Source: a bacterium
Lineage (GTDB): Bacteria > Electryoneota > RPQS01
Length of the DNA: 64,000 bases
Direction of reading: 5' to 3'
Assembly: GCA_016703065.1 (NCBI GenBank)
Contig: JADJCU010000002.1
Location: 142,797-206,796 of the forward strand
Under the pieces are notes generated by a model, which was given only the letters and a program-made list of their open reading frames with translations, had not been told where the DNA came from and did no database searches. Positions 8,396 through 24,897 of this stretch are shown here, piece by piece (positions within the stretch are counted from its first letter, which is position 1; every line of letters starts with the position of its first letter). The position numbers were made by a program, and so were the translations under genes.

Positions 8396-8700
8396 CAACT
8401 CGCAAGACGACGAAAGCCTCCGCGAAAGGAGACGCTATGAACACCCTGCCTCGAACGCGCGTTAGTAAGCAGGCACGTACTGATGGTGGACCGGCCGCCC
8501 GAACGGCTGCTGAGTCTCCCCAAGGACTTCTGACTTTGTCAGAAGCCGCCGAGATGCTCGGACGCGTTCACCGTACCACAATCATGCGCTGGGTGCGTGA
8601 AGACCGCCTAAAATGTGTGCGTTTGTCACGCAAAGTCATTCTTTTTGAGCGCGACGAGATCACACGCTTCATCCGAGAGCATCGCGCAACGGGTCACTAG
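8392..8700 (+). CDS. Small helix-turn-helix DNA-binding protein (excisionase/MerR-like HTH_17 type)
   Basis: 102 aa. The segment LLTLSEAAEMLGRVHRTTIMRWVREDRLKCVRLSRKVILFERDEITRFI matches the excisionase-family HTH pattern. The start overlaps the cytochrome stop as ATGA. The N-terminal 45 aa are basic and low-complexity. Confidence 0.7.
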   Translation: MTTRKTTKASAKGDAMNTLPRTRVSKQARTDGGPAARTAAESPQGLLTLSEAAEMLGRVHRTTIMRWVREDRLKCVRLSRKVILFERDEITRFIREHRATGH

Positions 8701-9122
8701 GCAATTTCTTGCCTGCCATCGCCTTTTGCACGAGCAATTGCGCAAATTCGGCGAAAACAAGAGCAATCAAACCATCAAACGACCGTAATGAAGGGATACC
8801 GGATAAATTAATCTTCAATAATGCCTCCGTTTTGTGAAGACGTGAATTAGAGTATTTGAGTCTACAAATCTGAATTCTTTGTGCTTGAGGAACTGACCGT
8901 GCAAGGAGACAGACAGCCTCAGGTTGGTAAGAGTATTGCTGTTGGAGAAGAAGTTGTTTACAATTGGTGCAGTGACTTAGCATTGCGCTGAGTCGCAACA
9001 ATTCGACTACACAATGATCCTCCTACAGCGTCGAACCAACAACCGTATCAATGAGTTGCACTTCACTGCGACAAGCGTGACTTGCGGCCTTAATCAGACC
9101 AGACTTATCAACATTTATATTT

Positions 9123-9172
9123 CCCCCTGTGGATGCTCCACAGGGGGCGTTATATTCCGGTAAAGGCCGGAA
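9123..9172 (+). promoter_or_regulatory. Two adjacent stem-loops in the leader of the lipoprotein cytochrome gene
   Basis: CCCCCTGTGG-atgct-CCACAGGGGG (9123-9147) and TTCCGG-taaagg-CCGGAA (9155-9172), 45-90 nt upstream of ATG 9215. Function unknown. Confidence 0.35.
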
Positions 9173-9214
9173 CAACACTAAATGGGAGCAAGGCCCTAAC
9201 CCAGGGGTGCCAAA

Positions 9215-10933
9215 ATGAACCGTAAAAGACTACATCCCGCACTATTCCTGCTGATCAGCCTTCTAACCGTCGGCGTTGCGTTTATCGGCTGCGAAGGCGA
9301 CCAAGGTCCGGCAGGACCTTCCGGACTGAATCCTGATTCGGCGCCGATCATCACGGCGGTCGTCGCCGCACCGGATTCCGTCGGAACAGGCGAGAGCACG
9401 ACGCTGTTTGTCAGCGCCTATGATCCGAATGGCGACGCCATGACCTATCAGTGGTCGGCAACCAGCGGCACGCTGTCGAATCCGACTGCCGCCGTAACGA
9501 ACTACACGCCGCCCAGCGGCATCGGTCTCTACACGATAACCGTGACCGTTACCGACGCCGATGGAAGCACCTCCGGCACAGTAAACGTCGGCGTGAACAC
9601 CTACGTACCGTCAGTCTTCCCGAGCTTCTTGGGTGACAATGCCAACCGGTGCAGCCACTGCCACGAAGCCAAGGTCTCGGGCTGGGAAACAACGCACCAT
9701 GCCGAAGCTTACGCGTCACTCGTAGCCTCTGCCTCTGAGAACAACCCGTACTGCTTGCAGTGTCACACCACCGGATGGGACGACATCGTTGCCTTTGATG
9801 GCAGCGTCACCACTCCCGGCGTGGACAACGGCGGCTACGATGACTATGCAAATGTCAATCTGCGCAACGTAACCTGTGAAGCCTGCCACGGCCCGATGGG
9901 CCCGGACTTCTCGTCCCACGAACCGGACATTGAACTTGTCTCCCGCGGCGAAACCTGTAATCGCTGCCACTCGCAGTACGAAGAATACCAGACTTCGGGT
10001 CACGGTCATGCGATCGAAGTGGCCGGTGGAGTGGAAGAGTTCAACACAGAGTTTAATCGGTCAAGCTGTAACTTCTGCCATATCTCCGAAGGCTTCATCA
10101 AGAAGTGGGATCCCGACTGGGCCGACCGTGCCGTCCCGGCCGACGGCTGGCAGGTCTCCTGCGCAACATGCCACGACGTGCACTCGCTCAACGCCGAGAA
10201 CAACCCCGCCTACTTGCGCGGCCTCGATGAATTCCCGATCGTGTACGCCGGTCCGGATCATCCCGACACACTGTGGATTCCGAACGAAGAAGAAGGCTAC
10301 CTGAGCTTCGGCAAGGGCCAGCAATGCGCCCAGTGCCACCACGCTCGCCGCAACGAAGCCAACATCAATGGCCAGATCAACAACGGCTCGGCTCACCCCG
10401 GTCCGCACGCATCGTGTCAGGCCGATATGATTATCGGCCGCGGCTCATACGAAATTCCGGGCAAGACCTACGTCCGTGAGTCCCCGCACCAACCGGATAC
10501 CGAAAGCGGCGAGACTTCTTTGGAGAATATGTGCGTGACCTGCCACGTTCACACGATTCCCGGCGACACCCCCGGACACGACTATCACGGCCACAGCTTC
10601 GCCCCGGTCGTTGAAGCCTGTCAGCAGTGCCACGGTACCGGCAGTGATTTCGACTACCACGGCAAACGTACCGAGATTCAGGAGTTGATGGATTCCCTGT
10701 TCGCCATGTTGCAGAACGACGGCGCTGAACCGATCTTCGATACGACGCTCACTGAGCGTTACGAGCGTGAAGCCGCCTACGCCTGGTTCTTCGTCAACAA
10801 CGAAGGCTCGATGGGTGTCCACAACTACCCCTACGCACATTCGCTTCTGACCAACGCCATCGACCATCTGCATGAGAATGGCGCTGCGATCACCGAACCG
10901 AAGCCGACCAAGTTCGCGTTCTTCAAGAACTAA
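9215..10933 (+). CDS. Lipoprotein multiheme cytochrome c (9 CxxCH) with N-terminal PKD/Ig-like domain
   Basis: 572 aa. Signal peptide plus lipobox (LLTVGVAFIGC). An Ig/PKD-like segment (YDPNGDAMTYQWSATSGTL...YTITVTVTDADGST). Then nine CxxCH motifs (CSHCH...CQQCH). Confidence 0.85.
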   Translation: MNRKRLHPALFLLISLLTVGVAFIGCEGDQGPAGPSGLNPDSAPIITAVVAAPDSVGTGESTTLFVSAYDPNGDAMTYQWSATSGTLSNPTAAVTNYTPPSGIGLYTITVTVTDADGSTSGTVNVGVNTYVPSVFPSFLGDNANRCSHCHEAKVSGWETTHHAEAYASLVASASENNPYCLQCHTTGWDDIVAFDGSVTTPGVDNGGYDDYANVNLRNVTCEACHGPMGPDFSSHEPDIELVSRGETCNRCHSQYEEYQTSGHGHAIEVAGGVEEFNTEFNRSSCNFCHISEGFIKKWDPDWADRAVPADGWQVSCATCHDVHSLNAENNPAYLRGLDEFPIVYAGPDHPDTLWIPNEEEGYLSFGKGQQCAQCHHARRNEANINGQINNGSAHPGPHASCQADMIIGRGSYEIPGKTYVRESPHQPDTESGETSLENMCVTCHVHTIPGDTPGHDYHGHSFAPVVEACQQCHGTGSDFDYHGKRTEIQELMDSLFAMLQNDGAEPIFDTTLTERYEREAAYAWFFVNNEGSMGVHNYPYAHSLLTNAIDHLHENGAAITEPKPTKFAFFKN

Positions 10934-10991
10934 CTACTCAGGCTTAAGCGCCTGCGGGCCTCATCGCCCGCCGACGCCCATTCTTAGCGGC

Positions 10992-11028
10992 GGCGGATTC
11001 CTTGCAATGCTATGGCAAGGAATCCGCC
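10992..11028 (+). terminator. Strong intra-operon stem-loop (attenuator, partial terminator or processing site)
   Basis: Perfect 14-bp stem GGCGGATTCCTTGC-N9-GCAAGGAATCCGCC between the 572-aa cytochrome stop (10933) and the barrel start (11064). It is followed by ccGCGCATTTTC. Confidence 0.45.
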
Positions 11029-11063
11029 CCGCGCATTTTCAGAAGGGAAATAATCGCACAACC

Positions 11064-12308
11064 ATGCGAATATCCAAGTCTATGCAGATGTTACTGCTGT
11101 TAACTCTGCTTCTCGGAATCGTCGGCCCGCCGTGGACGACCGACGCTGCCGCCGCGCCCACGTTCACGGGCCGAGCCGGACTCTGGTCATACGTCCGCGA
11201 TGATTCCGTCGACCATGTCCAAATCGTCCCGCTGCTCAGCCTAAACGTCAATCGCTTGGGCTGCAGCGAAGAGTGGGCCGTCGAAACTACCTTCCGCGGC
11301 TTCGCAGACTATCAGAATGGCGCAACCAACGGCTCGGCCGTCTTGCGTGCTCACCGTGCCGTGATCATCTGGAAAACCGAAGGTACCGGCTGGGAACTGC
11401 GCGGCGGTCAACAGTGGGTGAGCGAAGGCATCGGTCGCGGCAACGACGTCGGACTCTGGAGTCGCCACGAGTTTAGCCGCAAGACCGACCTCCGCGCCTA
11501 TGTCGGCGCGCGCCTTCCCAATACGCTCGCCTTCGATCACGCGATTCCCGAAACCGGCATGACCGGAGGACTGAATTTCCGCACGAAATTCGGCCCGCGT
11601 CAACTCGGCCTGTCATACTTCTACGTCGGCGACGATGCCCGCGTCTTGTTCTCCGGGTTGGGCTTCGACTACTTTTGCGCATCACTCACCGATGTGACGA
11701 TTCGTATGCGCTTGCACATGAATCTCGAGCAGGAAGCCATCGAGACCGGCCAACTCTCCGTATACTGGCAGACCAATGACAAACTCTTGATCAACGCCGA
11801 CGTGCGCTCGCAGACTCCGCGCATCTTCGAGGACTCCTTCTTCTCAATCTTCCTCGACGAAGCCAAGACCAACACCGCCCGCGCGGGTGCTGAATACGAA
11901 TTCTACAGGCACTTCTTCGCCACCGGAATGGGCTATCTCGTCTTCACGGAAGAGGACATGCTCTACAAGACTCGCCTCGGCCTTGGGTGCAAAAAGATTG
12001 AAGTCGGCTACACCCACTGGCTCTCTGCCGGTAAGGGCGACATGGACGGCTTCTACGGCGAAATCAAGCACGGCTGCAAGGCGCTCGACGGCTACGCAGG
12101 CTTTGACTACGCGCGCGGTTCAAACAGTGAAATTCGCCCCAACAGCGAGGATCAAGTCATCTTCGCCGGCCTCGATTGGTCGCCCAAGTCGTACTTCACG
12201 ATTGGCGCGCGCGGCGAACACTTGAAAGACAGCGAGCGCAGTGAAGACTTCCGCGCTCTCTTTTCGCTCATGACCACGTTTAAGTCAGGCGTAAGGAGCG
12301 GATCATGA
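11064..12308 (+). CDS. Putative outer-membrane beta-barrel (porin-like partner of the cytochromes)
   Basis: The internal ATG at 11064 gives the signal peptide MRISKSMQMLLLLTLLLGIVG...AAAAP. Many alternating amphipathic strands are present (LGLSYFYVG, IRMRLHMNL, LSVYWQT, GAEYEFY, IEVGYTHW, GYAGFDYA, VIFAGLDWS). There is an aromatic near-terminal strand, ALFSLMTTF. No heme motifs. Confidence 0.6.
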   Translation: MRISKSMQMLLLLTLLLGIVGPPWTTDAAAAPTFTGRAGLWSYVRDDSVDHVQIVPLLSLNVNRLGCSEEWAVETTFRGFADYQNGATNGSAVLRAHRAVIIWKTEGTGWELRGGQQWVSEGIGRGNDVGLWSRHEFSRKTDLRAYVGARLPNTLAFDHAIPETGMTGGLNFRTKFGPRQLGLSYFYVGDDARVLFSGLGFDYFCASLTDVTIRMRLHMNLEQEAIETGQLSVYWQTNDKLLINADVRSQTPRIFEDSFFSIFLDEAKTNTARAGAEYEFYRHFFATGMGYLVFTEEDMLYKTRLGLGCKKIEVGYTHWLSAGKGDMDGFYGEIKHGCKALDGYAGFDYARGSNSEIRPNSEDQVIFAGLDWSPKSYFTIGARGEHLKDSERSEDFRALFSLMTTFKSGVRSGS

Positions 12309-13081
12309 GAACCATGGTGATTCTTTTCACGCTCTGCGCGGCCTCCGCATTTGCGTCTGAACACGCGCTCGTCGGCTCCGACGGCAAATTACCTTCGGCC
12401 TTCAAGCATGACGTCCACATCGAGCAGGGCGTCACCTGCGCCGCCTGTCACGTCGGCGTGGAAACCAGCGTCAAGGGCACGGACAACCTGATGCCCCTCT
12501 GGTCCGTCTGCTCCGACTGCCACTCACCCGAAGACGTCGCCAACAAGGGCGTCGCATTGGGCGAGCAAAAAGACGGCTTCGTCTATAAGACCGTAACCAA
12601 CTACAGCCCGATCTTCCGTCATCAGCGCCATCTCGAGAAAGCCAAACTGGACTGCAACGTCTGCCACGCGAATCTCGATCAACCCGTCGCCGACGGCAAG
12701 CGCGGTCACTTCCCGCTGATGTCCGACTGCATGTCATGCCACGAGCAGCGCTCAGTGCATCGCGATTGCAAGACCTGCCACCTGCCCGGCGAAAAGCTGA
12801 CTCCCGACGATCACAATCTAATGTGGGATCAGCGTCACGGCTTGGCCTCAACCGCTCCCGATGCGCAGTGCATGATGTGCCACATCAGCGGCACGAAGCT
12901 CGACTGTCAGGCCTGTCATCAGGGCGACGCGGTGATCAATCCGCATCCGCGCAACTATCTCCGAAGCCATGGTCAGGACGCGCATCTTTCGGACTTCCGC
13001 TGTGGAACCTGCCACGAGCAGCGCAGCTTCTGCGTCGACTGTCACCGCGACATTCACCCTCGCCTTCATCTCGTGCAGTGA
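12305..13081 (+). CDS. Periplasmic multiheme cytochrome c (9 CxxCH, c3/c7-like spacing)
   Basis: 258 aa with a Sec signal (MRTMVILFTLCAASAFASE). Nine CxxCH motifs, many in the F.H..H....C..CH context. The start overlaps the barrel stop as ATGA. Confidence 0.85.
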   Translation: MRTMVILFTLCAASAFASEHALVGSDGKLPSAFKHDVHIEQGVTCAACHVGVETSVKGTDNLMPLWSVCSDCHSPEDVANKGVALGEQKDGFVYKTVTNYSPIFRHQRHLEKAKLDCNVCHANLDQPVADGKRGHFPLMSDCMSCHEQRSVHRDCKTCHLPGEKLTPDDHNLMWDQRHGLASTAPDAQCMMCHISGTKLDCQACHQGDAVINPHPRNYLRSHGQDAHLSDFRCGTCHEQRSFCVDCHRDIHPRLHLVQ

Positions 13082-13892
13082 AGATCGTGTCACCGAAAGC
13101 TACGACACGCATCCGAGTAACTGGATGGATCCGTTTAGCCCCGACTGGCATGGACAAGCGGCAATTGGTTCAAGTGGTGCGAGCTGCTTGGATTGCCATG
13201 CGATCAGTAGCGCCTCGAATAGCATGAACGGTGAAGGCGCAAGTGCCGCGACACCGACGGCAGGTGCTGCCTGCTATGATTGCCACTCTTATCCGCATGT
13301 CGCGGACATGAATCGATCACATGCCGAGCACTTCCGCACTCTGCAGAACTGGTCAACGGTCAGCAACTGTCGATCCTGTCACGGTGCGGACTTCGCCGGA
13401 GGCCGCAGCGGCGCGAGCTGTAACGAATGCCATACGCAGCAGGGTGGACCCGCGGCGTGCAACACCTGTCACGGCATGCCACCCACCACGACTCGTCCCA
13501 TTGGCGGCTACAACCCCGGCGTACATGCCGCGCATTCGCGCTATGCCTGCACCGAGTGTCATGCTCGCGTGAATGGCTTGGATCATATTGACGCGTTGCC
13601 TGCCGATGTGTCGTTCGAGAATGCTCGCATCTCAAATCAACACGGCTATCCTGTGAGCTACGAGAGTCTCGGCGGCGGCAACGGGACGTGCGCTACCTAC
13701 TGTCACTCGGACTTGCACAGCGGTCCGCCGCGCGTCGCGGTGGCTTGGGCAGCTGGCCAGACATTAACAACGTGTGTCTCGTGCCATTCCGTGCCGCCGG
13801 TGTCGGACTTTCATCCAAACAATCCGCGCTGCCACGAGTGCCATCTGAACATCGATCCGGAATTCGAACTACAACAATCCGAACGCGATTAG
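12969..13892 (+). CDS. Lipoprotein multiheme cytochrome c (8 CxxCH + 1 CX3CH), Geobacter-type C..YCH...CxxCH..PP repeat
   Basis: Lipobox FTLAFISC near the N-terminus. The motif GTCATYCHSD...W....TCVSCHSVPP resembles the Geobacter CxxxxCH...CXXCH domain. The start is uncertain: ATG 12969 or GTG 13002, and both overlap the upstream gene by 80-113 nt. Confidence 0.7.
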   Translation: MVRTRIFRTSAVEPATSSAASASTVTATFTLAFISCSEDRVTESYDTHPSNWMDPFSPDWHGQAAIGSSGASCLDCHAISSASNSMNGEGASAATPTAGAACYDCHSYPHVADMNRSHAEHFRTLQNWSTVSNCRSCHGADFAGGRSGASCNECHTQQGGPAACNTCHGMPPTTTRPIGGYNPGVHAAHSRYACTECHARVNGLDHIDALPADVSFENARISNQHGYPVSYESLGGGNGTCATYCHSDLHSGPPRVAVAWAAGQTLTTCVSCHSVPPVSDFHPNNPRCHECHLNIDPEFELQQSERD

Positions 13893-13975
13893 GTTCTTGC
13901 CCGGCGACACCCTTCACGTAAACGGCGTCGTCAACGCGATCTTCCCCGGATAATCGCCATCTGCCTTGAAATAGC

Positions 13976-14760: not shown

Positions 14761-14796
14761 GCCTCCCCACTTATTGCCCAAATGTATAACATATTG

Positions 14797-14846: not shown

Positions 14847-15205
14847 AGCGTCAGCTAACCAAACAAAACCGCCCCGGAGGAACCCGGCGGAAGAGGCCAA
14901 CCACACGGCCTGAACGGGCGGTCCAGTCTGATCAGCAAAGAACTTGTCGTGCTGGCACGCCCCTCCAAGTACCTGCGGGGAAACCGAGACCACTACAACA
15001 GACGACCGCTTAGAAAACACTCATTGTAAGCGTAAACGCAGCGCCTGCGGGTCCAGCGTCTACGCTGGAAAAGAAAGCGGCCTCAGCTTTCGCCGAGACC
15101 GCCACTACATCAATCGTCCAATCATCAGCGAAGCGCATTAGGTCCAGCGGTACGCTGGCCAAGGCCGCAGGTGCAGGACCCAACCCGGCTTCCGCCGGAG
15201 CTTGT

Positions 15206-17698
15206 CTACCCAAACATCGAGTAGAGAATAAACACTAACAACACCAATCCAGTAAGAAACGCTAGCCAGCCCCACGTCGAGAGCACGATCTTGTGCCACC
15301 GTTTCATAGGCGGAACAATGTGACCGTCGAGCTTGCCTTCGTTGACCAACTGCTCAATCTCCCGCGGACGTTCACGTTCAAGCTCTTCAGTCGACTCACG
15401 GCCCGTGAAGATCACATCGTCAAACGGGAACTTCGACGGACGCAAATGCCCGTTGAAGAAGTGCACAGTGAAGATGAATGCCGTCGCCAGCAGTGCCTCT
15501 TCACTGTGAACAATGTGCGCCAGATTGATCATCCAGCCCGGCAGCAGTTGCGTGAAGAACTCCGGATACCACAGAATGAAACCGCTTGACCCAATGATCA
15601 CGACACCCCAGAAGACCGCGAAGTAGTCGAACTTCTCCCAGTAGGTGAACTTACCAAAGCGCGGTTTCGGACCAAGACCCAGGAAATAACGGAAGTGGCC
15701 GAACATATCCTTGGCGTCTTGAACCTGCGGAACCATCGAACCATCACCCCAGAACAGTCCGCGCTTCTTCTGAATCAGCGCCGCATAGAGAAGACTCAGA
15801 ACGTGCAGAATGAAGGTCGCGATCATCAGTATAGCGCCGACGCGATGAATAATTGCCATCTCGCGCAAACCGATGACGTGGTTGGTAATCCAGTAAGCCG
15901 CTTCCGAATGCGAGAACTTGAGCGGCAAACCAGTCATTGCCTGCACCAGGAAGCTCGAGGCCAGCGTGATGTGCAGCGTCCGCTGCCATGGTGAGAAGCG
16001 GCGAACCCACTTGCGCATCACTTCGGGCGTCCGCTTCGGTCGGCCTTCGATCAAGCCGCGAATGAACCACAGAATCGTGTGCAGTCCGAAGAATCCGAAA
16101 ACTCCAAACAGCAGCGAGGTCATGAACTTCTCCGCGACCGTTACGTTGCTCTGCGGAGCCGTCGCGCCCTCGCCGCCGCCGTGCGGGTCGTAATGTGACA
16201 AGAACTGTACGAAGTTCTCGTTTGCGTCCTTGTGACAGCGCGCGCACGTCTGAATGATCTTGTCCCGGCTGACCTTCGATTCCGGATCGTTTTGACTTCT
16301 GATGTCGTGATTGCCGTGACAATTCACGCATGTTGCAAAGTCGTCGCCCTGATAGCCAAGGTTGTACGCCTGTCCGTGATACGTCCGTTCGTAGGAGCGG
16401 ACAACTTCCGGATTGAGTTGGAATTTCAGCGCGAAGTCGCGGTTGCCGTGACACTTGCTGCACATGTCGATGATGTGCCGGGGCCGCATGTCGTCGCTGA
16501 CCTTCTTGATATCTTTGTCTCCGTGACACGTCACGCACGTCGGCGCCTCGGTGTGACCTTTGGCGTAAGCAATGCCGTGCTCGGACTTCATGTACTCCTG
16601 ATATTCCGTCGGATGGCAGTTTTCGCACTGCATCCTTAGGTTCGACTTTGGCTCTTCGCCCGCGACCTTCCTTCTGAAGTGATAGACGTGACATTGCGTG
16701 CAGTTTGCGATGTCACCGGTCTCGGTTTGCGTCATCACCTTGCCGTGCGCGAGGAACTCCTTGGCGTGTCGCTCGCCTTCGTGACAGCGGTTGCACGTTG
16801 CCGGGAGCTGCTCGCGGAAGATGCCTCCGCCGGCATGAACCATCTGCGTTTGGTGGCCGGTGTGGCAGGCGACGCAGGTCATCAGTCTTGCATCGACACT
16901 GTCTTTGCGATGCAATGACTCTTCGTATCCGGTATGGCAGGTTGCGCAAAGTGCGTCCAATCGTTCCACGGACGCGTGCGACGCCGGATCACTTGGTGAC
17001 AACACACCATGTTCGCCGTGGCATGTGACGCAGTTGGGAGCGTCCAAATCGCCGCTCTTCAGCTTGTTGAAATGCTGACTGGCGACGTAGTTCTTGGTTT
17101 CGCTCTTGTGGCACTCCATGCAGCCGTGCACGTTGTATTCGCGCCACTCGGCCACCGACATGCTGTCGCGCCGCGATTTGAAATGCGGGTCATGACACGA
17201 CGTGCAGCTCATTTGCGCGCTGGCCGCCTTGCCCGTTCTCGAGTGCACGCTCTTATCAAAGGCTTCAAGTTCAGTCCGGTGGCAGATTCCGCACACCCGT
17301 CTGGAGTCCGCATGATCGGTAATCTGGTGCGAACCGTGACAGTCCGAGCATTCAGGAACGCCGCGGAACCCCATCGCATTCAGCTTGTTGAAGAAGCCGG
17401 CCATGAAGGTCTTCATTTCGGCATCATGGCAGGTGCCGCAGTTAACCTCACGCGGTCGCTCGTGCGGGAATTCCGCGCTTTTCAGATCGGCGTGGCAGTC
17501 AATGCAGTCCAGACCTTCGTGAACGGAGCCTTTCAGGCTGTCCGTCGTCACGCAGAGGAGTTTTTTGCCCGTCAGCGTCTCGGAGGTGAGCGTAGGGTCG
17601 TTGTGGCAATCCATGCAGTCGTTGTTGGTTTGCGCTCGCAACGGAACGCCAACCATCAGTACTGCAAGAACGAGGAGAATCTTGGCCTCTAAGGTCAT
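15206..17698 (-). CDS. Fusion protein: 17-heme c-type cytochrome domain + C-terminal membrane cytochrome-b domain (CbcL-like, FdnI/HydC-type)
   Basis: 830 aa with a signal peptide and 17 CxxCH motifs in the first ~520 aa. These are followed by about 5 TM helices with conserved His (LHTILWF, LHITLASSF, IHRVGAILMIATFILHV, AHIVHSEEALLATAFIFTVHFF). Confidence 0.85.
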   Translation of the reverse strand: MTLEAKILLVLAVLMVGVPLRAQTNNDCMDCHNDPTLTSETLTGKKLLCVTTDSLKGSVHEGLDCIDCHADLKSAEFPHERPREVNCGTCHDAEMKTFMAGFFNKLNAMGFRGVPECSDCHGSHQITDHADSRRVCGICHRTELEAFDKSVHSRTGKAASAQMSCTSCHDPHFKSRRDSMSVAEWREYNVHGCMECHKSETKNYVASQHFNKLKSGDLDAPNCVTCHGEHGVLSPSDPASHASVERLDALCATCHTGYEESLHRKDSVDARLMTCVACHTGHQTQMVHAGGGIFREQLPATCNRCHEGERHAKEFLAHGKVMTQTETGDIANCTQCHVYHFRRKVAGEEPKSNLRMQCENCHPTEYQEYMKSEHGIAYAKGHTEAPTCVTCHGDKDIKKVSDDMRPRHIIDMCSKCHGNRDFALKFQLNPEVVRSYERTYHGQAYNLGYQGDDFATCVNCHGNHDIRSQNDPESKVSRDKIIQTCARCHKDANENFVQFLSHYDPHGGGEGATAPQSNVTVAEKFMTSLLFGVFGFFGLHTILWFIRGLIEGRPKRTPEVMRKWVRRFSPWQRTLHITLASSFLVQAMTGLPLKFSHSEAAYWITNHVIGLREMAIIHRVGAILMIATFILHVLSLLYAALIQKKRGLFWGDGSMVPQVQDAKDMFGHFRYFLGLGPKPRFGKFTYWEKFDYFAVFWGVVIIGSSGFILWYPEFFTQLLPGWMINLAHIVHSEEALLATAFIFTVHFFNGHLRPSKFPFDDVIFTGRESTEELERERPREIEQLVNEGKLDGHIVPPMKRWHKIVLSTWGWLAFLTGLVLLVFILYSMFG

Positions 17699-17711
17699 TA
17701 ATCGGATCGCG

Positions 17712-20189
17712 TTACTTGTGATTCGATTCGGTTTCGGGAGTAGTCTTCGACCCTTCGTCTGCAGCTTCGCCGCCCGGGGAAGTGAGTTTCTCGTACCAGC
17801 GGCGATGCCGGTGTTTGACGAGGTCGAGGGAGATCTTACCGGTGAGCCACGTCCAGCTCATCGGATACTCTTCGGGATGGAAGATCACGAAGAAGAAGTG
17901 CCAGACGACGATGGCGAGCGTCGCCAGCCAAGCCTCGTAGAGGTGAATGGTCTGGCTAACTGGCACGGCCCACGCGGGCAACAGCGGGGAGAGTTCTGCG
18001 GGAAACCATAGGACGAATCCGGTCGCGATCATCAGGATCGTTCCCCAGATGAGGGCCCAGTATTCGGCCTTCTGTGAATAATCGTAGCGGTCAAATCTCG
18101 GGGCTTCTTTCGACCTATTCAAATGGTAGGCCATGTTGCCGGTCATCTCAGAGATATCGGACTTACCGGGCAGCAGCGCGGACCATTCTTCACGTCCTCG
18201 TCGGGTCATGAAGAGATAAACAACATGATAGACCGAACATCCGATCAGCCCAATGGCCATGACGCGGTGGGTGACGCTGCGAATGCCTTCATCAACACCG
18301 ACCATGGCCAGGAGCTTCACCCACCATGCTTCAGGGTATTTCAAGGCGAAGCCTGTGACCGCGAGTAGAATAAAGGTCACGGAGAGCGCCATGTGCTGAA
18401 TGATCTGGTGCTTGTCAAACCGCGTGACCTTCTTGCCGGCCGTCTGATGTTCTTTGGCTTTGGCGAGATGGTAGTTCAGGATGACGAGATTATGCAGGAC
18501 CATTCCGCCGATAACGACGATGATCATGATCCAGTAGATGCGCGCAATCCACCACTGGGCGCCGCCTTCGGTCGGCTGGAGTGCCTGATGGGTGTACGAC
18601 TGGGCGAAATTCGCGTCCGCCTTGGGATGGCATTTCGCGCACGTTTCCACAAGATTGCTCTTGTAGATGGACGATAACGAGTCGTTTGCCGTGCGCACGT
18701 CATGAGCGCCGTGGCAGTCGTTGCAAGTCGGCGTCTTGTCGTCCTTCGCGACGGTCGCGAGTCCATGATAGCTATCCGTGTAAGTCGAGACCACATCCGG
18801 TGCGAGACCATACTTGCGGATGATATCGGGGTCTTCGTGACACTTACCGCATGTTTCCGCCGCGATCTTCGCATGACTGACTTTGCTCTTGGGGTCTTTC
18901 GGCGAGATCAGCAGGTGTTCGCCGTGGCACCCGGTGCAGGTCGGGCTGTCATAGATTCCGCTGCTCAGCGCGCGATAGTGAATCGAGACCTCATAGAGGT
19001 CTTTTTCATCTGTATGACACTGGCCGCACGTCTTGTGAATATTCTGAATATTGATCGTCGAATTGGGATTGCTGCTTCCGAGCACGGCGTGACCGCCGTG
19101 GCAGTCGATGCAAACGGGAACGTCCTGGTTCCCCTGCTGCAGCAGTTTGCCGTGTGTGCTTTCGAGATAGTTCTCGAACGAGCGCGGCAGTCTCACATCC
19201 GGATCCAGGGCAATCCCGATTTGACTGTGGCATGTGGCGCACGTGGAAACCTGATTGCCGCGGTGCATCGGCGACTCGGGGTCCGATACTTTGCGGATGT
19301 TGTGCGCTCCGTGACAGCTCTCGCATCTTGGGGCGCGGGGTGAACCGCTGGCAAGCGCGTAAGCATGCAGGCTCATATTGTAGCGGCGCACGGATTCCGC
19401 ATGGCACGCACCGCAGGTCGCTTCAGCGGGAGATTCATTCGTCACGCGCAAAGACGTATCGGAGGGAGCTCGACTGCGGTGTTCGCCGTGGCAGTCGAAG
19501 CAATGCGAGAGATTGCGGCCTTCGTTGAATTGCCCGTGGACGGACTTCTTGAACTCAGCCTGAATATCCTGATGGCAATTCAGGCAGGCCTGTTCGAGCA
19601 TCTGAGGTTGCTTGTCTTCGGCATGCACAGAGTGTGAGCTATGACAATCGGTGCAGCTCGGCAGGCCCTCCTTGCCGGAGTTGGCCAGACGACCGTGAAT
19701 ACCGACGTCATAGCTTGCATACGACGCGGTGCGTCCGTGCCGCGGTACGTGAAGCCTGTTGTGGCACTGTTCGCACGTCTGATCGATTCGTTCTTTGGAG
19801 ACTTTGGCGTTACCGTTCTTGGTGCCGAGTACGTTGTGCGTGCCATGGCAAGCCGCGCACTTCAGCACGCCCTCGTGACCACCTGAAGCGACTTGTGCGG
19901 CGGCGTCTTTGTGACATGCGGCACAGTCCACCGCCTTGAGCTTCTCGTCATGGGGGAAATCGTCAAAGCCCTTGAGGTCGGCGTGACAGGCGACGCATGC
20001 GAGCGCGGCATGTTTTGAGCGTGACAGCGAATCGGACGTCACGCACAATGAGACGACTGAACCATCCGGATTTGTCCTTGTCAGGGAAGCATCGGAGTGG
20101 CAGTCGACACAGGCCGCATCATCACCCGCATAGGCGGGGGCGAGCAGGCACACGAGCAGGAGCAGGGGATAGATGAGGAGACGGTTCAT
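17712..20189 (-). CDS. Paralogous 17-heme cytochrome c::cytochrome b fusion (CbcL-like)
   Basis: 825 aa with the same architecture as the downstream gene. 17 CxxCH motifs, then TM helices with His (HNLVILNYH, IIQHMALSVTF, THRVMAIGLIGCSVYHV, IHLYEAWLATLAIVVWHFFFVIFH). Confidence 0.85.
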   Translation of the reverse strand: MNRLLIYPLLLLVCLLAPAYAGDDAACVDCHSDASLTRTNPDGSVVSLCVTSDSLSRSKHAALACVACHADLKGFDDFPHDEKLKAVDCAACHKDAAAQVASGGHEGVLKCAACHGTHNVLGTKNGNAKVSKERIDQTCEQCHNRLHVPRHGRTASYASYDVGIHGRLANSGKEGLPSCTDCHSSHSVHAEDKQPQMLEQACLNCHQDIQAEFKKSVHGQFNEGRNLSHCFDCHGEHRSRAPSDTSLRVTNESPAEATCGACHAESVRRYNMSLHAYALASGSPRAPRCESCHGAHNIRKVSDPESPMHRGNQVSTCATCHSQIGIALDPDVRLPRSFENYLESTHGKLLQQGNQDVPVCIDCHGGHAVLGSSNPNSTINIQNIHKTCGQCHTDEKDLYEVSIHYRALSSGIYDSPTCTGCHGEHLLISPKDPKSKVSHAKIAAETCGKCHEDPDIIRKYGLAPDVVSTYTDSYHGLATVAKDDKTPTCNDCHGAHDVRTANDSLSSIYKSNLVETCAKCHPKADANFAQSYTHQALQPTEGGAQWWIARIYWIMIIVVIGGMVLHNLVILNYHLAKAKEHQTAGKKVTRFDKHQIIQHMALSVTFILLAVTGFALKYPEAWWVKLLAMVGVDEGIRSVTHRVMAIGLIGCSVYHVVYLFMTRRGREEWSALLPGKSDISEMTGNMAYHLNRSKEAPRFDRYDYSQKAEYWALIWGTILMIATGFVLWFPAELSPLLPAWAVPVSQTIHLYEAWLATLAIVVWHFFFVIFHPEEYPMSWTWLTGKISLDLVKHRHRRWYEKLTSPGGEAADEGSKTTPETESNHK

Positions 20190-20192
20190 GAG

Positions 20193-21296
20193 TTATTTCA
20201 TCTTAGTTCCCGGCAGCGCTGCAGGATACGAGATATCCGCATCGTGGCAGCCGGAACACGTAGGAGTAAGCGCAAAATTACGATTCGGATGACACTCTTC
20301 ACAGGAGATTTCGACGTGTTCTTCGTTCAGCGAGAGGCCGGCAAGTTTGTGATTGAACGACTTCATGTCCCACGACTTGTGGCACGAGTTACAGTCGGGT
20401 GAAGGCTTCGTGAAATGATGCGAGTTTCCGTGGCACCGTTTGCACGACAACCGTTCGTGGTAACCTTTGAGCGGCCAGCCGGTACGATCATGCGAGAAGG
20501 CCTTTGCCTCAGTTTTGAGGTGACACTGATCACAGCTCATTTCGGCATGGCAGGAGTTGCAGATGCCATGCAGGGCCTCTTCGCTGTGGCGGATCTCTGT
20601 GGTAGTCTGATCCGACTTAGCATGGCAGGACGCGCAACCTTCGGCGTGGTGACAAGAGGCGCAGTCAATGCCGTATTTGTCGGTATGATTGCGATGGAAC
20701 AGGGTTACGACGGTGCCTCCGCCGTAGGTTGAGTTCCAGACTTTCTTTTCAGGCTGGACGAGACCTTTGAAACGACTTCCCGACTTGGGCATTCCGGCAT
20801 GCGCAGGCGGAGTTTCGCCCTTCTTGACATGGCAGATCTCGCAGGCGGTGTCGTGGCTCCAGTCCTGATGGCATCCAAGACACTGGCGGTGATAAGCGCC
20901 TTTTAAGCTCGGTTGTTCGAGGTTATCATCGGCGGCATCAGGCGGGTGGCAGTTTTTGCAGGCGGTGATGCCACCGATTTCCTGAAAGTGGTGGCAATCT
21001 TGACAGCCGCGATCCATGGCCGTCATTTCGGCATGGAGGCGATGTGAAAAGTCAACGGGCTCGTATTCGGCTTCGATTTCGTTTATTAGAATCCGATCGG
21101 GTCCCAATTTCAGTTCCTGCGGCGTAACACGCGGTCGGGGACAGCCGCGCAGGCAGGGATCTTCAAGGGTTGGGGTGCTGCAGACGTGACATTCAGTACA
21201 GCCGTTCGTAACTTTCGAAGGTTGTGCTTTGGCCAGAGAGTTATCGCTATACAGTAGCAGCGCGAGGAGTGCAGCGATGAGTGAGAATAATTGCAT
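20193..21296 (-). CDS. Periplasmic 13-heme cytochrome c (c3-family, Hmc/Nhc-like)
   Basis: 367 aa with a Sec signal (MQLFSLIAALLALLLYSDNSLAKA). 13 CxxCH motifs by hand count, with F.H..H contexts. Confidence 0.85.
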   Translation of the reverse strand: MQLFSLIAALLALLLYSDNSLAKAQPSKVTNGCTECHVCSTPTLEDPCLRGCPRPRVTPQELKLGPDRILINEIEAEYEPVDFSHRLHAEMTAMDRGCQDCHHFQEIGGITACKNCHPPDAADDNLEQPSLKGAYHRQCLGCHQDWSHDTACEICHVKKGETPPAHAGMPKSGSRFKGLVQPEKKVWNSTYGGGTVVTLFHRNHTDKYGIDCASCHHAEGCASCHAKSDQTTTEIRHSEEALHGICNSCHAEMSCDQCHLKTEAKAFSHDRTGWPLKGYHERLSCKRCHGNSHHFTKPSPDCNSCHKSWDMKSFNHKLAGLSLNEEHVEISCEECHPNRNFALTPTCSGCHDADISYPAALPGTKMK

Positions 21297-21464: not shown

Positions 21465-22706
21465 TTAGTGGTTTTCGCCGGCGTAATCCGGATGCTGCAA
21501 GAGGATCGGCATGCGATTGACGATGAACTCGTAAATCAGCACGCCCAGGGTGAAGATGCTGACGGTGACTGCGATCTCTTTCCAATGCGGGACATAGCGT
21601 TCGGCGGCGTTCCAGTTCAGGGCGATCGTGGAGACGTTCAGGCGATTCAAGACAAGTCCGATGACCGTCCAGACTCCTGCGATGCGTGCCCACGAAGGTT
21701 TGAGATTACGGACCGAGAACATGAACAGGAATGCGGGCGCCAGAATGAATCCGAAGACTTCGACGAGCCACCACTGGCCATAACCTGTGGTCAGGAGAGC
21801 CCATTGATGTTCATGGGCGACGCCGATGACCTTTAGCCAGAAGTAGAGATAGAGCACGAGTGCGCCGCCCTTTGCCAGTCCGAGGATCAAGCGGTCCAAG
21901 TCGCGGTGACTAAGATGTCCGGTTTGCTTCTCGAAAAACTTGTGGGCCAGTGTTGACTCGATGATGATCATCCCGATACCGCCAGAGACGGCGGAGATGA
22001 GGAAGAAGACTGGCAGGTACATGCTGTACCAGAGCGGATGCAGTTTGCCGGGCGCGATCAAGAGGAGCGCGCCGAGCGAAGACTGATGGAGGGTTGACAG
22101 GACGACGGCCATGACCGTTGCGCCAAGCGTAAGGCGGACCGCCCACGTGCGGAGTCGTTTTGCGCCGATCCATTCAAAGAGCGGGGGCAGAAATTCGATG
22201 AACTGGCAGCCGAGGTAGAGGGCGACGCACCAGCCGACTTCGAACATCACGGAGCTTGTGCCCCACGAAACAAACATGGGGTAGGGGAGACGCCAGGGGC
22301 GACCGAGGTCGAAGGCCAGACCAACGACGACGAGTATGTAGCCCAGGAAGCCGGTGAGAATTGCCGGCCGAACCAAGGAATTATACTCGCGCAAGCCGAA
22401 GATGTGCGAGATTGTGCCGATCGTGAACCCACCGGCGGCGAGTGCAACACCGCAGAGAACATCGATACCGATCCAAATACCCCAGGGGTTGGCATCCGTG
22501 AGATTGGACACGGCGGCGAGGCCTCCGGTGAAGCGCTGAAACGCGACGGGAATACCCACGGCGAGAATTGCCCATGCGATGAAGTGACCGGGAGTAAGGA
22601 GACTTTTGAAGTAGTCGCGCGGAGTCATGCCGAGGAAGATTTTGTCCCGCATGAAGTTCGGCGCGATGAGTGGAGTTCGGTGGACAGGGGCAGTGACCGT
22701 AGCCAT
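21465..22706 (-). CDS. NrfD/PsrC-family integral membrane quinone-interacting subunit
   Basis: 413 aa and polytopic (8 or more TM helices), with typical NrfD-like composition. The start is adjacent to the stop of the FeS gene (shared position 22706). Confidence 0.75.
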   Translation of the reverse strand: MATVTAPVHRTPLIAPNFMRDKIFLGMTPRDYFKSLLTPGHFIAWAILAVGIPVAFQRFTGGLAAVSNLTDANPWGIWIGIDVLCGVALAAGGFTIGTISHIFGLREYNSLVRPAILTGFLGYILVVVGLAFDLGRPWRLPYPMFVSWGTSSVMFEVGWCVALYLGCQFIEFLPPLFEWIGAKRLRTWAVRLTLGATVMAVVLSTLHQSSLGALLLIAPGKLHPLWYSMYLPVFFLISAVSGGIGMIIIESTLAHKFFEKQTGHLSHRDLDRLILGLAKGGALVLYLYFWLKVIGVAHEHQWALLTTGYGQWWLVEVFGFILAPAFLFMFSVRNLKPSWARIAGVWTVIGLVLNRLNVSTIALNWNAAERYVPHWKEIAVTVSIFTLGVLIYEFIVNRMPILLQHPDYAGENH

Positions 22707-23653
22707 TAGTGCTCCTCCCCCGGCTCTTTGTTATTGCCGTGCGGCTTGCCATTCTGTTTGGCGGCCAGCTCGTCTTTGCGCTTTGTGAATAGATAGATGC
22801 TCAAGAAGAAGGCGGGCCAGATGGCCATGACCAGCGGTGCGGCAGAGAGGTAGTTGCGAGTTAGCGAAGGATACGGTGTTTTGCCGAGATCCGTTCGGAA
22901 TCCGAGCGTGTCGAAGGGCTGCGCCGCGAGATACATCCAGCTTGTCCCGCCGACTTCGTGCTCGCCGTATATGTGGTCGACATATTTCTCGTGGTGACGA
23001 GCGATTTTTTGGCGCGCGACTTTGATCAAGTCTTCGCGTTTGCCGAAGGTCATCACTTCCCGGGGGCAGGCCTCGGTACAGGCAGGTGGTTTGCCTTCTT
23101 TCAGGCGGGTCTCCAAACAGAAAGTGCACTTCCGGACTCGGGGGTGGAGTGCACTCGCGTATTCATAGGTAGGGATATCGAATGGGCAGGCTATCATGCA
23201 GTAGCGGCAGCCGATGCAGACGCTGGCGTCGTAGGCGACGGCGCCTTGATCGGTTTTTGTGAATGCACCGACGAGACAGGCGGACGCGCAGGCGGGTTCG
23301 TCGCAGTGCATACACTGTTTCTTGACGTAAACCGGCGAGTCAGGATTCGAACCGGGGAAACGATTGACAACGGTAAATTGTCCGGGATGTGTGCGGCGGG
23401 GTTGGTCGAACACTGTTGCATCTTCCGGCGCCTTGTCGAGGGCGGGGAGATTATGTTCTTTGGCACAAGCGAGTTCGCAGCGCCGGCAGTTTTGGCCGAT
23501 GCACTGAGTGGTATCAACGAGAATTCCAAAGCGGTCAGGATTGCCTTCGAATTCCTCCACTGCGGCAGACGCGTCATTAGGCAGCGCACCTGCTCCGACT
23601 CGCACGGCGGCCAAACCGGCGAGCTTGAGGAAGTCTTTTCGACTGATATTCAT
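22706..23653 (-). CDS. Tat-exported 4x[4Fe-4S] ferredoxin subunit (NrfC/HybA/HmcB-like) with C-terminal TM anchor
   Basis: 315 aa. Tat-like signal MNISRKDFLKLAGLAAV. Cys clusters CIGQNCRRCELAC, CMHCDEPACASAC, CIGCRYCMIACP and CTFC...CTEACP. C-terminal helix LVMAIWPAFFLSIYLF. Confidence 0.85.
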   Translation of the reverse strand: MNISRKDFLKLAGLAAVRVGAGALPNDASAAVEEFEGNPDRFGILVDTTQCIGQNCRRCELACAKEHNLPALDKAPEDATVFDQPRRTHPGQFTVVNRFPGSNPDSPVYVKKQCMHCDEPACASACLVGAFTKTDQGAVAYDASVCIGCRYCMIACPFDIPTYEYASALHPRVRKCTFCLETRLKEGKPPACTEACPREVMTFGKREDLIKVARQKIARHHEKYVDHIYGEHEVGGTSWMYLAAQPFDTLGFRTDLGKTPYPSLTRNYLSAAPLVMAIWPAFFLSIYLFTKRKDELAAKQNGKPHGNNKEPGEEH

Positions 23654-23817: not shown

Positions 23818-24393
23818 TTATTCTGTCTTACCGGCGGTGCTATCGGCAACTTCCGGTACGTGGTGTACGATCTTGTCGTAGGCTTCCTTGAAGTTGAAGC
23901 CCTTGAAGGTCGGCGACTTTTCGTTATGGCACTTGGTGCAGGTGGCTTCTGTCGGGATGATCATCCCGGCCGCCAGCGACGCTTCGCGGCTTTCCATGAC
24001 CTTCTTCGACTTGTAGTTCGAGCCCGGTCCGTGGCAGGCTTCGCAACCGACGCTGCCGAGGGCTTCGGCATTGTGCATCGTGGTGTCTGCACCAAAGCCG
24101 CTGGGGGTACCGTAGCCGGTGGTATGGCAGGCTAAACACTCGGCGTTATTCTGCTCGCCCTTGGCAACTAACGATTCCATGGACTTGGCGTGCTTGGTCT
24201 CAAGCCAGCCTTCCCAGATATTGCCGTTCTTTTCGCCCTTGTGACACATCTTGCACTTACCGGAGCCGATGTAGGCCGGATCACCGGTCGGGGCTGCATC
24301 TTCAGCGTAGACGGACAATGCCGAGAGGGCAAAGCCAAACACAATCAATGCACCGAGGATCTTTGAACTAGTTCTGCTCATTGCTCTTTCCAT
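23818..24393 (-). CDS. Small tetraheme cytochrome c (cytochrome c554-like family)
   Basis: 191 aa with a signal peptide. Four CxxCH motifs (CKMCH, CLACHTTGYG, CEACHGPGS, CTKCH). First gene of the minus-strand operon. Confidence 0.8.
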   Translation of the reverse strand: MERAMSRTSSKILGALIVFGFALSALSVYAEDAAPTGDPAYIGSGKCKMCHKGEKNGNIWEGWLETKHAKSMESLVAKGEQNNAECLACHTTGYGTPSGFGADTTMHNAEALGSVGCEACHGPGSNYKSKKVMESREASLAAGMIIPTEATCTKCHNEKSPTFKGFNFKEAYDKIVHHVPEVADSTAGKTE

Positions 24394-24440: not shown

Positions 24441-24897
24441 GACTGTTATTTTGCGATCAGTTCTGCGTCGCACATAATTCCCCGCGTGACGAAAGTCACA
24501 GATGTCGTGGTGGCGGGGTGAGATTATACCCACTTTTCGGCCTTCACGACTCGGACAATATAGCAGTTACACCCACAAATAGCAACCGAGGTTTCCGGGT
24601 TATCCCTTTGCAAAATATGATATTCGGGGTCTAATTAAAGGGTCAATTGGGCCTAATTCAGCGGACAAATTTATCCAATTTCGACCGATTGTCGGCCAGA
24701 AACGGTGAATATTGAAGCAGATAGGGTCGGAGTCTGGGGACGAGTGAGCAAGGGGTAGCGGCGGCTCAGCGATATGTGAGATTAGCACTGATTAGCGTGA
24801 CAGGATCACAACTCTCGGTGATAAGGAGGAAAGGCGAATTTTGGGGAGCAGGTCCAGCGCCAGACCGGACGCGCAGGACATCCTCTTCAAGCAAAGA

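Follow-up and report, generated by a model that had tools for sequence, protein, structure and literature searches.

The 64,000-nucleotide (nt) stretch of DNA analysed here (hereafter, the window) comes from a bacterium of the Electryoneota (GenBank assembly GCA_016703065.1, contig JADJCU010000002.1, positions 142,797 to 206,796) and raises the question of why one genome should keep, side by side, two genes that each join a 17-heme cytochrome c to a membrane cytochrome b. A preliminary description of the window had singled out these two genes, here called A and B, and had regarded them as a duplicated, heme-rich version of CbcL from Geobacter. Our analysis points to a different history: the family appears to consist of two ancient lineages, one represented by A and the other by B, that are repeatedly kept as A+B neighbours, and this arrangement appears to be new. 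As to function, we favour, with a probability of about 0.62, the reading that the operon ending in A and B builds an inner-membrane hub, through which the menaquinone pool and a network of periplasmic and outer multiheme proteins exchange electrons and in which A and B are parallel, non-identical gates to the quinone pool. The question reaches beyond this genome: few gates that connect the quinone pool with extracellular electron transfer are known, CbcL-type proteins are among them, and their genes serve as metagenome markers for metal and electrode respiration.

Two adjacent genes encode genuine cytochrome c::b fusions

The coordinates of A, B and all surrounding features are collected in Table 1. 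The two open reading frames (ORFs), of 825 and 830 amino acids (aa), lie exactly where they had been placed, with a spacer of 13 nt (17699-17711), and each encodes exactly 17 CxxCH motifs and zero CxxxCH, CxxxxCH or CxxCK motifs. For A, with 37 Cys and 55 His in 825 aa, the number of CxxCH motifs expected by chance is ~0.1. The motifs span residues ~27-521 of A and ~28-489 of B, and are preceded by hydrophobic leaders, read off the sequence, that end in AYA/GDD (A) and LRA/QT (B) and are predicted to be signal peptides. The proposed order of signal peptide, multiheme cytochrome c and FdnI/HydC-type cytochrome b is borne out by Pfam matches, fold and motif counts, and the resemblance of this architecture to CbcL holds. 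The N-terminal ~520 residues are matched by Pfam families of multiheme cytochromes c. When aligned with each other, A and B match end to end at 30% identity (E 1e-101, 322 bits), in keeping with the view that they are old and clearly diverged.

A reasonable concern raised from the outset was that a lost stop codon or an indel had created the c::b fusion, and a real frame break does occur in a neighbouring gene, at ~13860. However, A and B each align over their full length with their 79-83% identical orthologs in a related locus (L001; handles of this type denote the fetched loci of relatives) as a single high-scoring segment pair in a single frame. Full-length orthologs of equal length and heme count are present in dozens of independent assemblies, and the same fusion recurs across hundreds of independent assemblies and has been published before (PMC6295460). 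By these sequence comparisons the fusions are genuine; an assembly artefact is practically inconceivable, and the frame break at ~13860 lies outside A and B.

The 17 hemes fall within a modular series

If 'a' denotes CxxCHxxH and 'n' a plain CxxCH, the motif pattern of A is nnn(an)x7, or a three-heme cap followed by seven di-heme units (CxxCHxxH then CxxCH), and that of B is nnn(an)x5-nn-an. The commonest relatives have the patterns nnn(an)x4 (11 hemes) and nnn(an)x6 (15 hemes), with several 17- and 19-heme variants too. In an alignment of the family, the 11-heme proteins retain the first two and the last nine heme positions, the longer members differ by a variable middle cassette, and A and B fill the same 17 of the 22 pan-family heme positions. 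The spacing of the last five CxxCH motifs is nearly equal in Geobacter CbcL (29/28/43/28) and A (30/29/42/28), and the nine hemes of CbcL would, by motif count, fit 3+2n with n=3. Judged from these patterns, the 17 hemes are the n=7 member of a modular 3+2n series of variable length, and no new design; since heme number follows this series, '17 hemes' does not in itself define a new class.

The idea that A and B have far more hemes than known proteins had to be abandoned for a second reason. Zhong & Shi catalogued CbcL/MtrH/MtoC homologs of 416-1034 aa in 15 phyla, including Calditrichaeota and Ignavibacteriae, with 3-23 CxxCH motifs, 4-6 transmembrane (TM) helices and conserved His residues in the TM segments (Zhong & Shi, 2018; PMC6295460). 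A and B likewise combine an export signal and a multi-CxxCH domain with a PF01292-type b domain of 4-6 TM helices and conserved TM His residues. Among the entries in Table S2 of that study are 19-heme proteins from Caldithrix abyssi (Cabys_319, 920 aa) and from Ignavibacteria, as well as a single protein with 23 hemes; an entry with 17 hemes is missing (PMC6295460). As to whether identical 17-heme fusions had been described before, the answer is thus divided: they are missing from the 2018 table and abundant in public data. Our search with A found 4,523 proteins at E<=1e-10 among 8,000 candidates scored, and the best 120 of these had mostly 11 (50 proteins), 15 (8), 17 (42), 18 (6) or 19 (9) hemes. 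The search with B found 1,208 proteins, the best 120 of which included 71 with 17 hemes and 37 with 19. When 1.84 billion cluster representatives were searched without an index, 5,869, 3,261 and 931 clusters (50%-identity clusters) were obtained at E<=1e-3, 1e-10 and 1e-30, respectively, and species-representative genomes contained >576 loci with c::b genes. The phyla include Acidobacteriota, Ignavibacteriota, Calditrichota, Bacteroidota, Gemmatimonadota, Planctomycetota, Verrucomicrobiota, Zixibacteria, Latescibacterota, Omnitrophota and NC10. The protein type is therefore known and widespread, and its heme number alone is not novel.

The c domain of A contains 24 His residues outside the CxxCH motifs and only four Met, and that of B contains 23 such His. 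The c domain of A has invariant distal His columns, and there are invariant columns in that of B as well. Because 24 and 23 spare His residues are available, bis-His ligation of the c hemes is plausible, and the sequences of both proteins are consistent with such ligation throughout. Foldseek searches with the models of A and B, which could have revealed a structural analogue of the c domain, matched the b domain only, and a search of PDB sequences with the c domain of A gave only marginal matches of the NrfA type (E about 1e-3).

The membrane domain resembles FdnI but has two additional invariant histidines

AlphaFold models were obtained for A from 115 sequences (mean predicted local distance difference test score, pLDDT, 86.2; predicted template-modelling score, pTM, 0.72) and for B from 40 sequences (pLDDT 74.0, pTM 0.54, with 77-93 in the b domain). 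Hydropathy and the models give five TM helices in A (TM0 544-577, TM1 593-617, TM2 634-661, TM3 704-728 and TM4 741-770) and six in B (TM0 515-551, TM1 570-594, TM2 611-642, TM3 686-710, TM4 721-747 and a sixth at 800-829). The only significant PDB fold match of both models was E. coli FdnI (1kqf_C), with FdnI-normalised TM-scores of 0.78 (A) and 0.77 (B), and the next was the cytochrome b of Hyd-1. FdnI was also the sole match (E 1e-5) when PDB sequences were searched with the C-terminus of A. The predicted match to PF01292 (Ni_hydr_CYTB) was confirmed for A (residues 590-772, 54 bits, above the gathering score of 30.1), whereas that of B (residues 567-743, 26.7 bits, E 5.5e-6) fell below the gathering score. 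The profile of the formate dehydrogenase gamma subunit, TIGR01583, scored 54.6 and 31.4 bits on the two C-termini, against a cut-off of 115.85.

The bis-His pattern that had been suspected in the b domains is present: the FdnI ligands H18, H57, H155 and H169 align with H599, H641, H749 and H764 of A and with H576, H618, H731 and H746 of B, and all four positions are 100% conserved in the C-terminal domains of 228 homologs from the A and B searches. A and B thus share with FdnI (PDB 1KQF chain C) a four-helix di-heme b fold, its four ligands and a loop ahead of TM3. That loop aligns with the Y109-K114 loop of FdnI and is conserved in lineage-specific forms, RYDYSQK in A and KFTYWEK in B, which has an invariant YWEKFDY motif before TM3. 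N110 and Q113 of the FdnI loop lie at the site of the inhibitor 2-heptyl-4-hydroxyquinoline N-oxide (HQNO). A alone also shares with FdnI a C-terminal segment beyond TM4, GKISLDLVKHRHRRWY, of the form GKxS...HxRWY.

There are also differences from FdnI. FdnI is a stand-alone 217-aa subunit fed by FdnGH, whereas A and B carry a fused 17-heme chain. In addition, A and B have an extra N-terminal helix, TM0, with an invariant His (H566 in A, codon 18492-18494; H540 in B), and a second invariant His in TM2 (H655 in A, codon 18225-18227; H632 in B), 14 residues below the ligand of heme bP, at a position occupied by Met71 in FdnI. The invariant set is therefore H566, H599, H641, H655, H749 and H764 in A and H540, H576, H618, H632, H731 and H746 in B, whose H751 is lineage-specific. 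In its topology TM0 resembles the FdnH anchor helix of Fdn-N. By topology, both extra His residues sit in the cytoplasmic half of the membrane. They may serve as ligands of a third b heme or contribute to a site for quinone or protons. Their conservation suggests a membrane module that departs from the FdnI paradigm, and a b module with two such unexplained invariant His residues appears to be new.

One assignment to another class of quinol dehydrogenase was dropped. A and B do not belong with NapC/NirT/CymA or ImcH, as they have no PF03264 match and possess a C-terminal b domain.

A and B represent two lineages older than the sampled phyla

We next consider the claim that the gene is duplicated. 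The fetched loci contain 222 c::b genes, and the b domain of each was scored by BLAST against A and B, which divided the genes into 119 of the A-lineage and 103 of the B-lineage. A WEKFD motif just before TM3 is present in 99% of the B-lineage and 0% of the A-lineage. The tail after the last CxxCH is typically ~348 aa in the B-lineage and ~310 aa in the A-lineage, but was dropped as a marker because some 16-heme proteins of the A-lineage have tails of ~345 aa; WEKFD and the BLAST scores separate the two cleanly. The b domain of A is 27-31% identical to those of the B-lineage. B matches the 19-heme class at 31-36% identity (E ~1e-150), and its b domain shares about 44% identity with that of the B-lineage gene in locus L073 that, by heme spacing and tail length, is matched by Cabys_319 of Caldithrix.

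One explanation of the gene pair, the one put forward in the preliminary description, is an old tandem duplication of a CbcL-like gene followed by tuning of the copies to different redox-potential windows, as in the ImcH/CbcL/CbcBA set. Lineage specialisation is indeed the simplest reason to keep both genes, and at 30% identity the two proteins have nevertheless kept every heme motif and ligand. The duplication itself is contradicted by the relationships of A, which is 34-50% identical to single-copy 11-, 15-, 18- and 19-heme proteins of other phyla and 30% identical to B. Furthermore, B is not among the best 120 of A's 4,523 matches; these 120 score 620 bits or more, compared with 322 bits for A against B. 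A therefore has closer relatives in other phyla, among single-copy proteins with 11 to 19 hemes, than it has in B. On this sequence evidence the split between A and B predates the phyla sampled, and the pair is no local duplication.

It is also possible to ask to which lineage CbcL belongs. A legible fragment of Geobacter CbcL, derived by optical character recognition (OCR) from a garbled supplementary figure, matches B at 25 of 43 positions and A at 14 of 43, and two short database fragments retrieved with it as bait both carry YWEKFDF. CbcL is predicted to have six TM helices, its tail measures 362 aa (PMC6295460), and it shares with B the six helices, a tail of ~350-360 aa after the last CxxCH and WEKFD before TM3. 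A differs from CbcL in its five TM helices, the lack of WEKFD and its FdnI-like C-terminus. The spacing signature of CbcL was absent from all fetched proteins and loci. With moderate confidence, and from the garbled fragment, TM count and tail length, we place CbcL in the B-lineage, and with similar, moderate confidence we take A to be a sister lineage that was not captured by the 2018 catalogue. Marker-gene surveys probably undercount or conflate the lineages.

A and B recur as heterotypic neighbours

Pairing was surveyed in 80 A-centred genome loci and in 77 B-centred metagenome loci with a detected c::b gene (of 80 fetched). Two c::b genes were found in 19 of the former and 29 of the latter, and in all 48 the pair consisted of one A and one B; A+A and B+B pairs numbered zero. 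This result, too, speaks against a duplicated gene. Heme numbers within pairs vary. A11+B19 is the commonest combination, and A13+B19, A16+B19, A19+B17, A11+B17 and A11+B11 also occur, whilst A17+B17 is limited to the clade of the window (the window itself, L001-L004, L012 and one metagenome locus, presumably L092, with 80% identity to B). The two genes share a strand in 33 of the 48 pairs (21 in the order A-B, 12 in the order B-A) and lie on opposite strands in the remaining 15. An instructive example is the metagenome-assembled genome HyVt-577 (L073), assigned to Caldithrix abyssi, in which an A11 gene (7001-8929) lies 326 nt upstream of a B19 gene (9256-11919), the one that resembles Cabys_319. 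The 11-heme upstream neighbour is missing from the 2018 table, which gives Calditrichaeota one homolog, and that study reported neither a lineage split nor heterotypic pairing (PMC6295460). Our literature searches for paired, 17-heme or two-lineage CbcL-like proteins found no description in the searchable literature, and a survey of Desulfuromonadia found that genomes typically carry one copy per inner-membrane cytochrome.

Such strict pairing suggests another explanation, namely that A and B are obligate partners in one heteromeric bc-cytochrome complex, with two b modules side by side and two periplasmic heme chains. The pairing holds in 48 of 48 two-gene loci, in many phyla and at any heme number; in the clade of the window the spacers of 4-13 nt are compatible with translational coupling, and both partners there have 17 hemes with the same occupancy pattern in the family alignment. 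According to the work on the 1KQF structure, Fdn-N, which contains FdnI, is reportedly oligomeric, a further point in favour of a complex. However, 45 A-centred and 20 B-centred loci with ample flanks (e.g., L005-L009) contain a single c::b gene, 15 of the 48 pairs are on opposite strands, and according to the literature Geobacter CbcL functions without a known A-type partner. Strict pairing and tiny spacers speak for a complex, whereas the many lone genes and the pairs on opposite strands speak for two enzymes that are independent and specialised. We consider an obligate heteromer somewhat unlikely. The pairing poses the question of whether it serves a complex, two potential windows or two directions, and if the type strain of C. 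abyssi carries A11+B19 too, that question could be studied in a cultured species.

A six-gene operon ends with A and B

A and B close an operon of six genes that encode, in order, a c554-like tetraheme cytochrome, an HmcB-like iron-sulfur (FeS) protein, an HmcC-like NrfD-family protein, a 13-heme cytochrome, A and B (Table 1). The spacings within the operon are 1-168 nt; genes 2 and 3 overlap by 1 nt, and the stop codon of gene 4 lies 3 nt ahead of the start of A. The ortholog of gene 1 in L001 (181 aa, PF13435 Cytochrome_C554) has the same position, and in L002 a 191-aa c554-like gene also lies upstream, with a 572-aa multiheme gene between it and the FeS gene. The product of gene 2 carries, to judge from its sequence, a Tat-like signal (SRKDFLK) and an anchoring TM helix at its C-terminus. 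Relatives with 79% and 65% identity keep the order FeS-NrfD-13-heme-A-B, with 8 and 4 nt between A and B, and so does L012. Distant family members lack the Hmc-like module, except for weaker FeS/NrfD/13-heme matches in L013, L046, L059 and L071. The distant c::b genes often adjoin genes for NapC/NirT-like, c554-like and other multiheme proteins and for a protein of ~410-425 aa with no Pfam match.

Because A and B are 13 nt apart in one operon, they cannot be differentially transcribed, and transcriptional tuning of the two to separate redox windows is excluded. Potential gating of CbcL is post-translational, through single residues (bioRxiv 10.1101/2022.08.31.506072), and gating of that kind could also operate on co-transcribed partners. 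The analogy with ImcH, CbcL and CbcBA is itself loose, as these are three different families at separate loci. Taken with the evidence on ancestry given above, we regard a tandem duplication with subsequent redox tuning as doubtful, albeit a serious contender.

Genes 2-4 resemble the Hmc and Nhc complexes of Desulfovibrio (HmcABC, NhcABCD) in their combination of a multiheme cytochrome, a Tat-exported, TM-anchored FeS protein and an NrfD-type subunit; they differ in that the Hmc/Nhc cytochrome has 16 or 9 hemes compared with 13 here, and is not linked to two bc-cytochromes. Taken at face value, database labels would make A and B formate dehydrogenase gamma subunits, or the operon part of the sulfate-respiration complex Hmc. 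The Joint Genome Institute (JGI) calls many homologs 'formate dehydrogenase gamma subunit', TIGR01583 matches the C-termini, and HmcB and HmcC are the best NCBIfam matches of genes 2 and 3. All of these scores lie under the curated cut-offs, however: HmcB scores 401 bits on gene 2 (cut-off 420; HybA 217 bits) and HmcC 500 bits on gene 3 (cut-off 550). Gene 4 resembles the C-terminal part of the 16-heme HmcA in a partial match that covers only ~100 positions (profile positions 446-541), and no FdnG/FdnH-type molybdopterin subunit, hydrogenase or HmcDEF gene is present in the operon or in the conserved neighbourhoods. It is very improbable that either label describes the function.

Two narrower assignments were rejected on related grounds. 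For a stand-alone formate dehydrogenase gamma subunit or Ni-Fe hydrogenase cytochrome b there is no gene for a catalytic dimer nearby, and the label is valid at the level of the domain only. For the upstream trio as a Desulfovibrio Hmc complex, HmcDEF-like genes are missing from the window and from L001 and L002.

A putative hub between the quinone pool and a multiheme network

The reading that we favour can now be set out as a mechanism. Each protein would be a self-contained bc-cytochrome of the CbcL/MtrH/MtoC kind. Its membrane part would be an FdnI-fold, four-helix di-heme b module, to which the extra TM0 would bring the chain in from the periplasm, and its periplasmic part would be a chain of covalently bound hemes, a three-heme cap followed by seven di-heme units. 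By analogy with FdnI and CbcL, a quinone site is expected on the cytoplasmic side, beside heme bC and including the conserved loop before TM3, and electrons would travel via bC and bP to the c heme nearest the membrane and from there through all 17 hemes. Soluble or outer-membrane cytochromes would probably receive them, namely the 13-heme and c554-like proteins of the operon and the porin-cytochrome-like cluster beside it. Support for a quinone-linked activity that feeds extracellular electron transfer is contextual and comes from these multiheme and porin-cytochrome-like genes. A, of the sister lineage, and B, of the CbcL type, would be co-expressed; they are not recent duplicates.

The closest characterised system is Geobacter sulfurreducens CbcL (GSU0274, 619 aa), in which a signal peptide, a periplasmic bis-His multiheme c domain and an FdnI/HydC-type b domain are likewise combined in one polypeptide. 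It has been assigned a menaquinol oxidase role, with nine bis-His hemes and electron transfer to PpcA (PMC9129911; bioRxiv 10.1101/2022.08.31.506072); every heme of its c domain is low-spin with bis-His ligation, and the domain has a midpoint potential of -194 mV and reduces PpcA (PMC9129911). Unlike A and B, CbcL has 9 hemes rather than 17 and is described as single-copy, with no A-type neighbour and no NrfCD-type operon. Geobacter CbcBA is similar in that a b-type membrane cytochrome and a multiheme c-type partner act together as a menaquinol oxidase for extracellular electron transfer (bioRxiv 10.1101/2021.04.15.440034); CbcBA differs in that it consists of two polypeptides, with no fusion, and is separately induced at very low potential.

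Several points weigh against this hub. The assignment of CbcL to the B-lineage is based on an OCR-derived fragment, TM count and tail length; the PF01292 match of B is sub-threshold; the two additional invariant TM His residues are unexplained by a di-heme FdnI model; and experimental data on the family are confined to Geobacter. The strict heterotypic pairing could equally mean an A-B complex. Finally, electrons may flow in either direction: genes of the CbcL family are found in Fe(III) reducers and Fe(II) oxidisers alike (PMC6295460).

This last point leads to a further alternative, in which the flow is inward. A and/or B would reduce menaquinone at the cytoplasmic face with electrons from the periplasm or the cell exterior, the NrfD/FeS/13-heme module would re-oxidise menaquinol on the periplasmic side, and the operon would conserve energy between two extracytoplasmic couples. 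FdnI, which the b domains resemble in fold, ligands and the loop aligned with its quinone site, works physiologically in Fdn-N in the direction of quinone reduction, and FdnI-type and NrfD-type quinone modules stand together in one operon. MtoC genes, which belong to the CbcL family, occur in Fe(II) oxidisers (PMC6295460). The basis of this proposal is purely topological, though, and CbcL, the one member that has been characterised, runs outward and oxidises quinol. Moreover, the Hmc-like module accompanies the pair only in the clade of the window and a few other loci, and so is no general partner. We judge such an inward redox loop improbable.

These alternatives could in principle be combined: A and B may form a conserved heteromeric complex, in which each b module has a third heme or a special quinone or proton site provided by the extra TM0 and TM2 His residues, supplemented in this clade by the NrfD/FeS/13-heme redox loop. 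The combination is a long shot. If true, it would add a new kind to the known respiratory complexes, one spread widely across Calditrichota, Ignavibacteriota, Bacteroidota, Acidobacteriota and further phyla.

Neighbouring genes and other features of the window

Table 1. Positions of the A/B operon, its protein domains and associated features in the window
Feature	Coordinates	Strand	Length (aa)	Remarks
Gene 1, c554-like cytochrome	23818..24393	-	191	4 CxxCH; hydrophobic N-terminus (signal or anchor)
Gene 2, periplasmic 4Fe-4S protein, HmcB/HybA-like	22706..23653	-	315	PF13247 Fer4_11
Gene 3, NrfD-family membrane quinone-interacting subunit, HmcC/HybB-like	21465..22706	-	413	PF03916 NrfD
Gene 4, periplasmic 13-heme cytochrome c	20193..21296	-	367	13 CxxCH; PF02085, PF14522
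Gene 5 (A), A-lineage bc-cytochrome	17712..20189	-	825	Predicted signal peptide, 17-heme c domain, 5-TM cytochrome b domain
A, periplasmic c domain	18570..20126	-		Residues 22-540; 17 CxxCH; PF09699 Paired_CXXCH_1, PF14522, PF14537
A, membrane domain	17781..18560	-		Residues 544-803; from AlphaFold helices and FdnI alignment
Gene 6 (B), B-lineage (probably CbcL-type) bc-cytochrome	15206..17698	-	830	Predicted signal peptide, 17-heme c domain, 6-TM cytochrome b domain
B, periplasmic c domain	16169..17632	-		Residues 23-510; 17 CxxCH
B, membrane domain	15212..16156	-		Residues 515-829; from AlphaFold helices and alignments
Two promoter-like sites upstream of operon	24557..24646	-		Consensus scan only; 7 found in region, 4.3 expected
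Strong terminator hairpin closing the preceding VWA/T9SS gene	24898-24930	-
Terminator-like hairpin	15076..15103	-		12-bp stem, T-rich tail; about 100 nt past B stop
Convergent cluster	6458..13947	+		NapC/NirT-like protein with 17 CxxCH; PKD + c554-like protein; protein with no Pfam match; 9-heme and 8-heme cytochromes

The convergent cluster is probably a functional partner of the operon; similar clusters adjoin c::b genes in L001, L008, L009 and L026/L030/L045. Its first gene (6458-8395, plus strand) encodes an unusually long NapC/NirT-like membrane cytochrome of 645 aa, with 17 CxxCH and one CxxxxCH, which is a third kind of quinol dehydrogenase candidate within 20 kb and is kept beside the A/B pair in L001, L002-L004 and L012. 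The PKD + c554-like protein has 9 hemes in 572 aa. The protein with no Pfam match (10872-12308, plus strand) is 478 aa long compared with 411 aa for its ortholog, and its annotated start is probably too far upstream. Orthologs of ~410-425 aa lie between multiheme genes near c::b genes in L001 (16944-18179), L008 (11481-12758) and L009 (4907-6157), and the protein is a candidate for the outer-membrane barrel in a porin-cytochrome conduit.

The 8-heme and 9-heme genes of the cluster are disrupted. In the 8-heme gene (12969-13892, plus strand), residues 16-281 of the L001 ortholog are encoded in frame +3 (13053-13859) and, past the break at ~13860, residues 282-310 in frame +1 (13861-13947). The 9-heme gene (12305-13081) is without the last ~53 aa of its 301-aa ortholog. 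Both disruptions (13045-13081 and ~13860) are either real indels or assembly errors, and lie outside A and B.

Between the convergent cytochrome operons, positions 14015-14757 contain five to six copies of an intergenic repeat of 94-200 nt, each carrying the palindrome CCCCCCAAAGTTGC(C)GCAACTTTGGGGGG, with a partial copy at 15132-15159. The element resembles repetitive extragenic palindromic (REP) sequences or miniature inverted-repeat transposable elements (MITEs), and a 312-aa ORF at 14082-15020 (minus strand) is a by-product of it. A scan of the window against Rfam matched no RNA family. The cumulative GC skew has its minimum at 14000-16000, where genes switch from the plus to the minus strand, which probably reflects coding-strand bias and not a replication landmark.

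Upstream of the operon, 24955-27231 (minus strand) encodes a VWA-domain protein with a C-terminal sorting domain of the type IX secretion system (T9SS), and 28549-41712 (plus strand) is occupied by ORFs of very large size (762, 1301, 1303 and 714 aa). The counterpart of one of these in L001 is a 1301-aa S8 peptidase with CarboxypepD_reg domains. The T9SS sorting domains, taken with the names under which the nearest homologs are filed (e.g., 'Calditrichaeota bacterium'), put the organism in the FCB group. Together, the large ORFs and the VWA/T9SS protein point to a protein-degrading member of that group.

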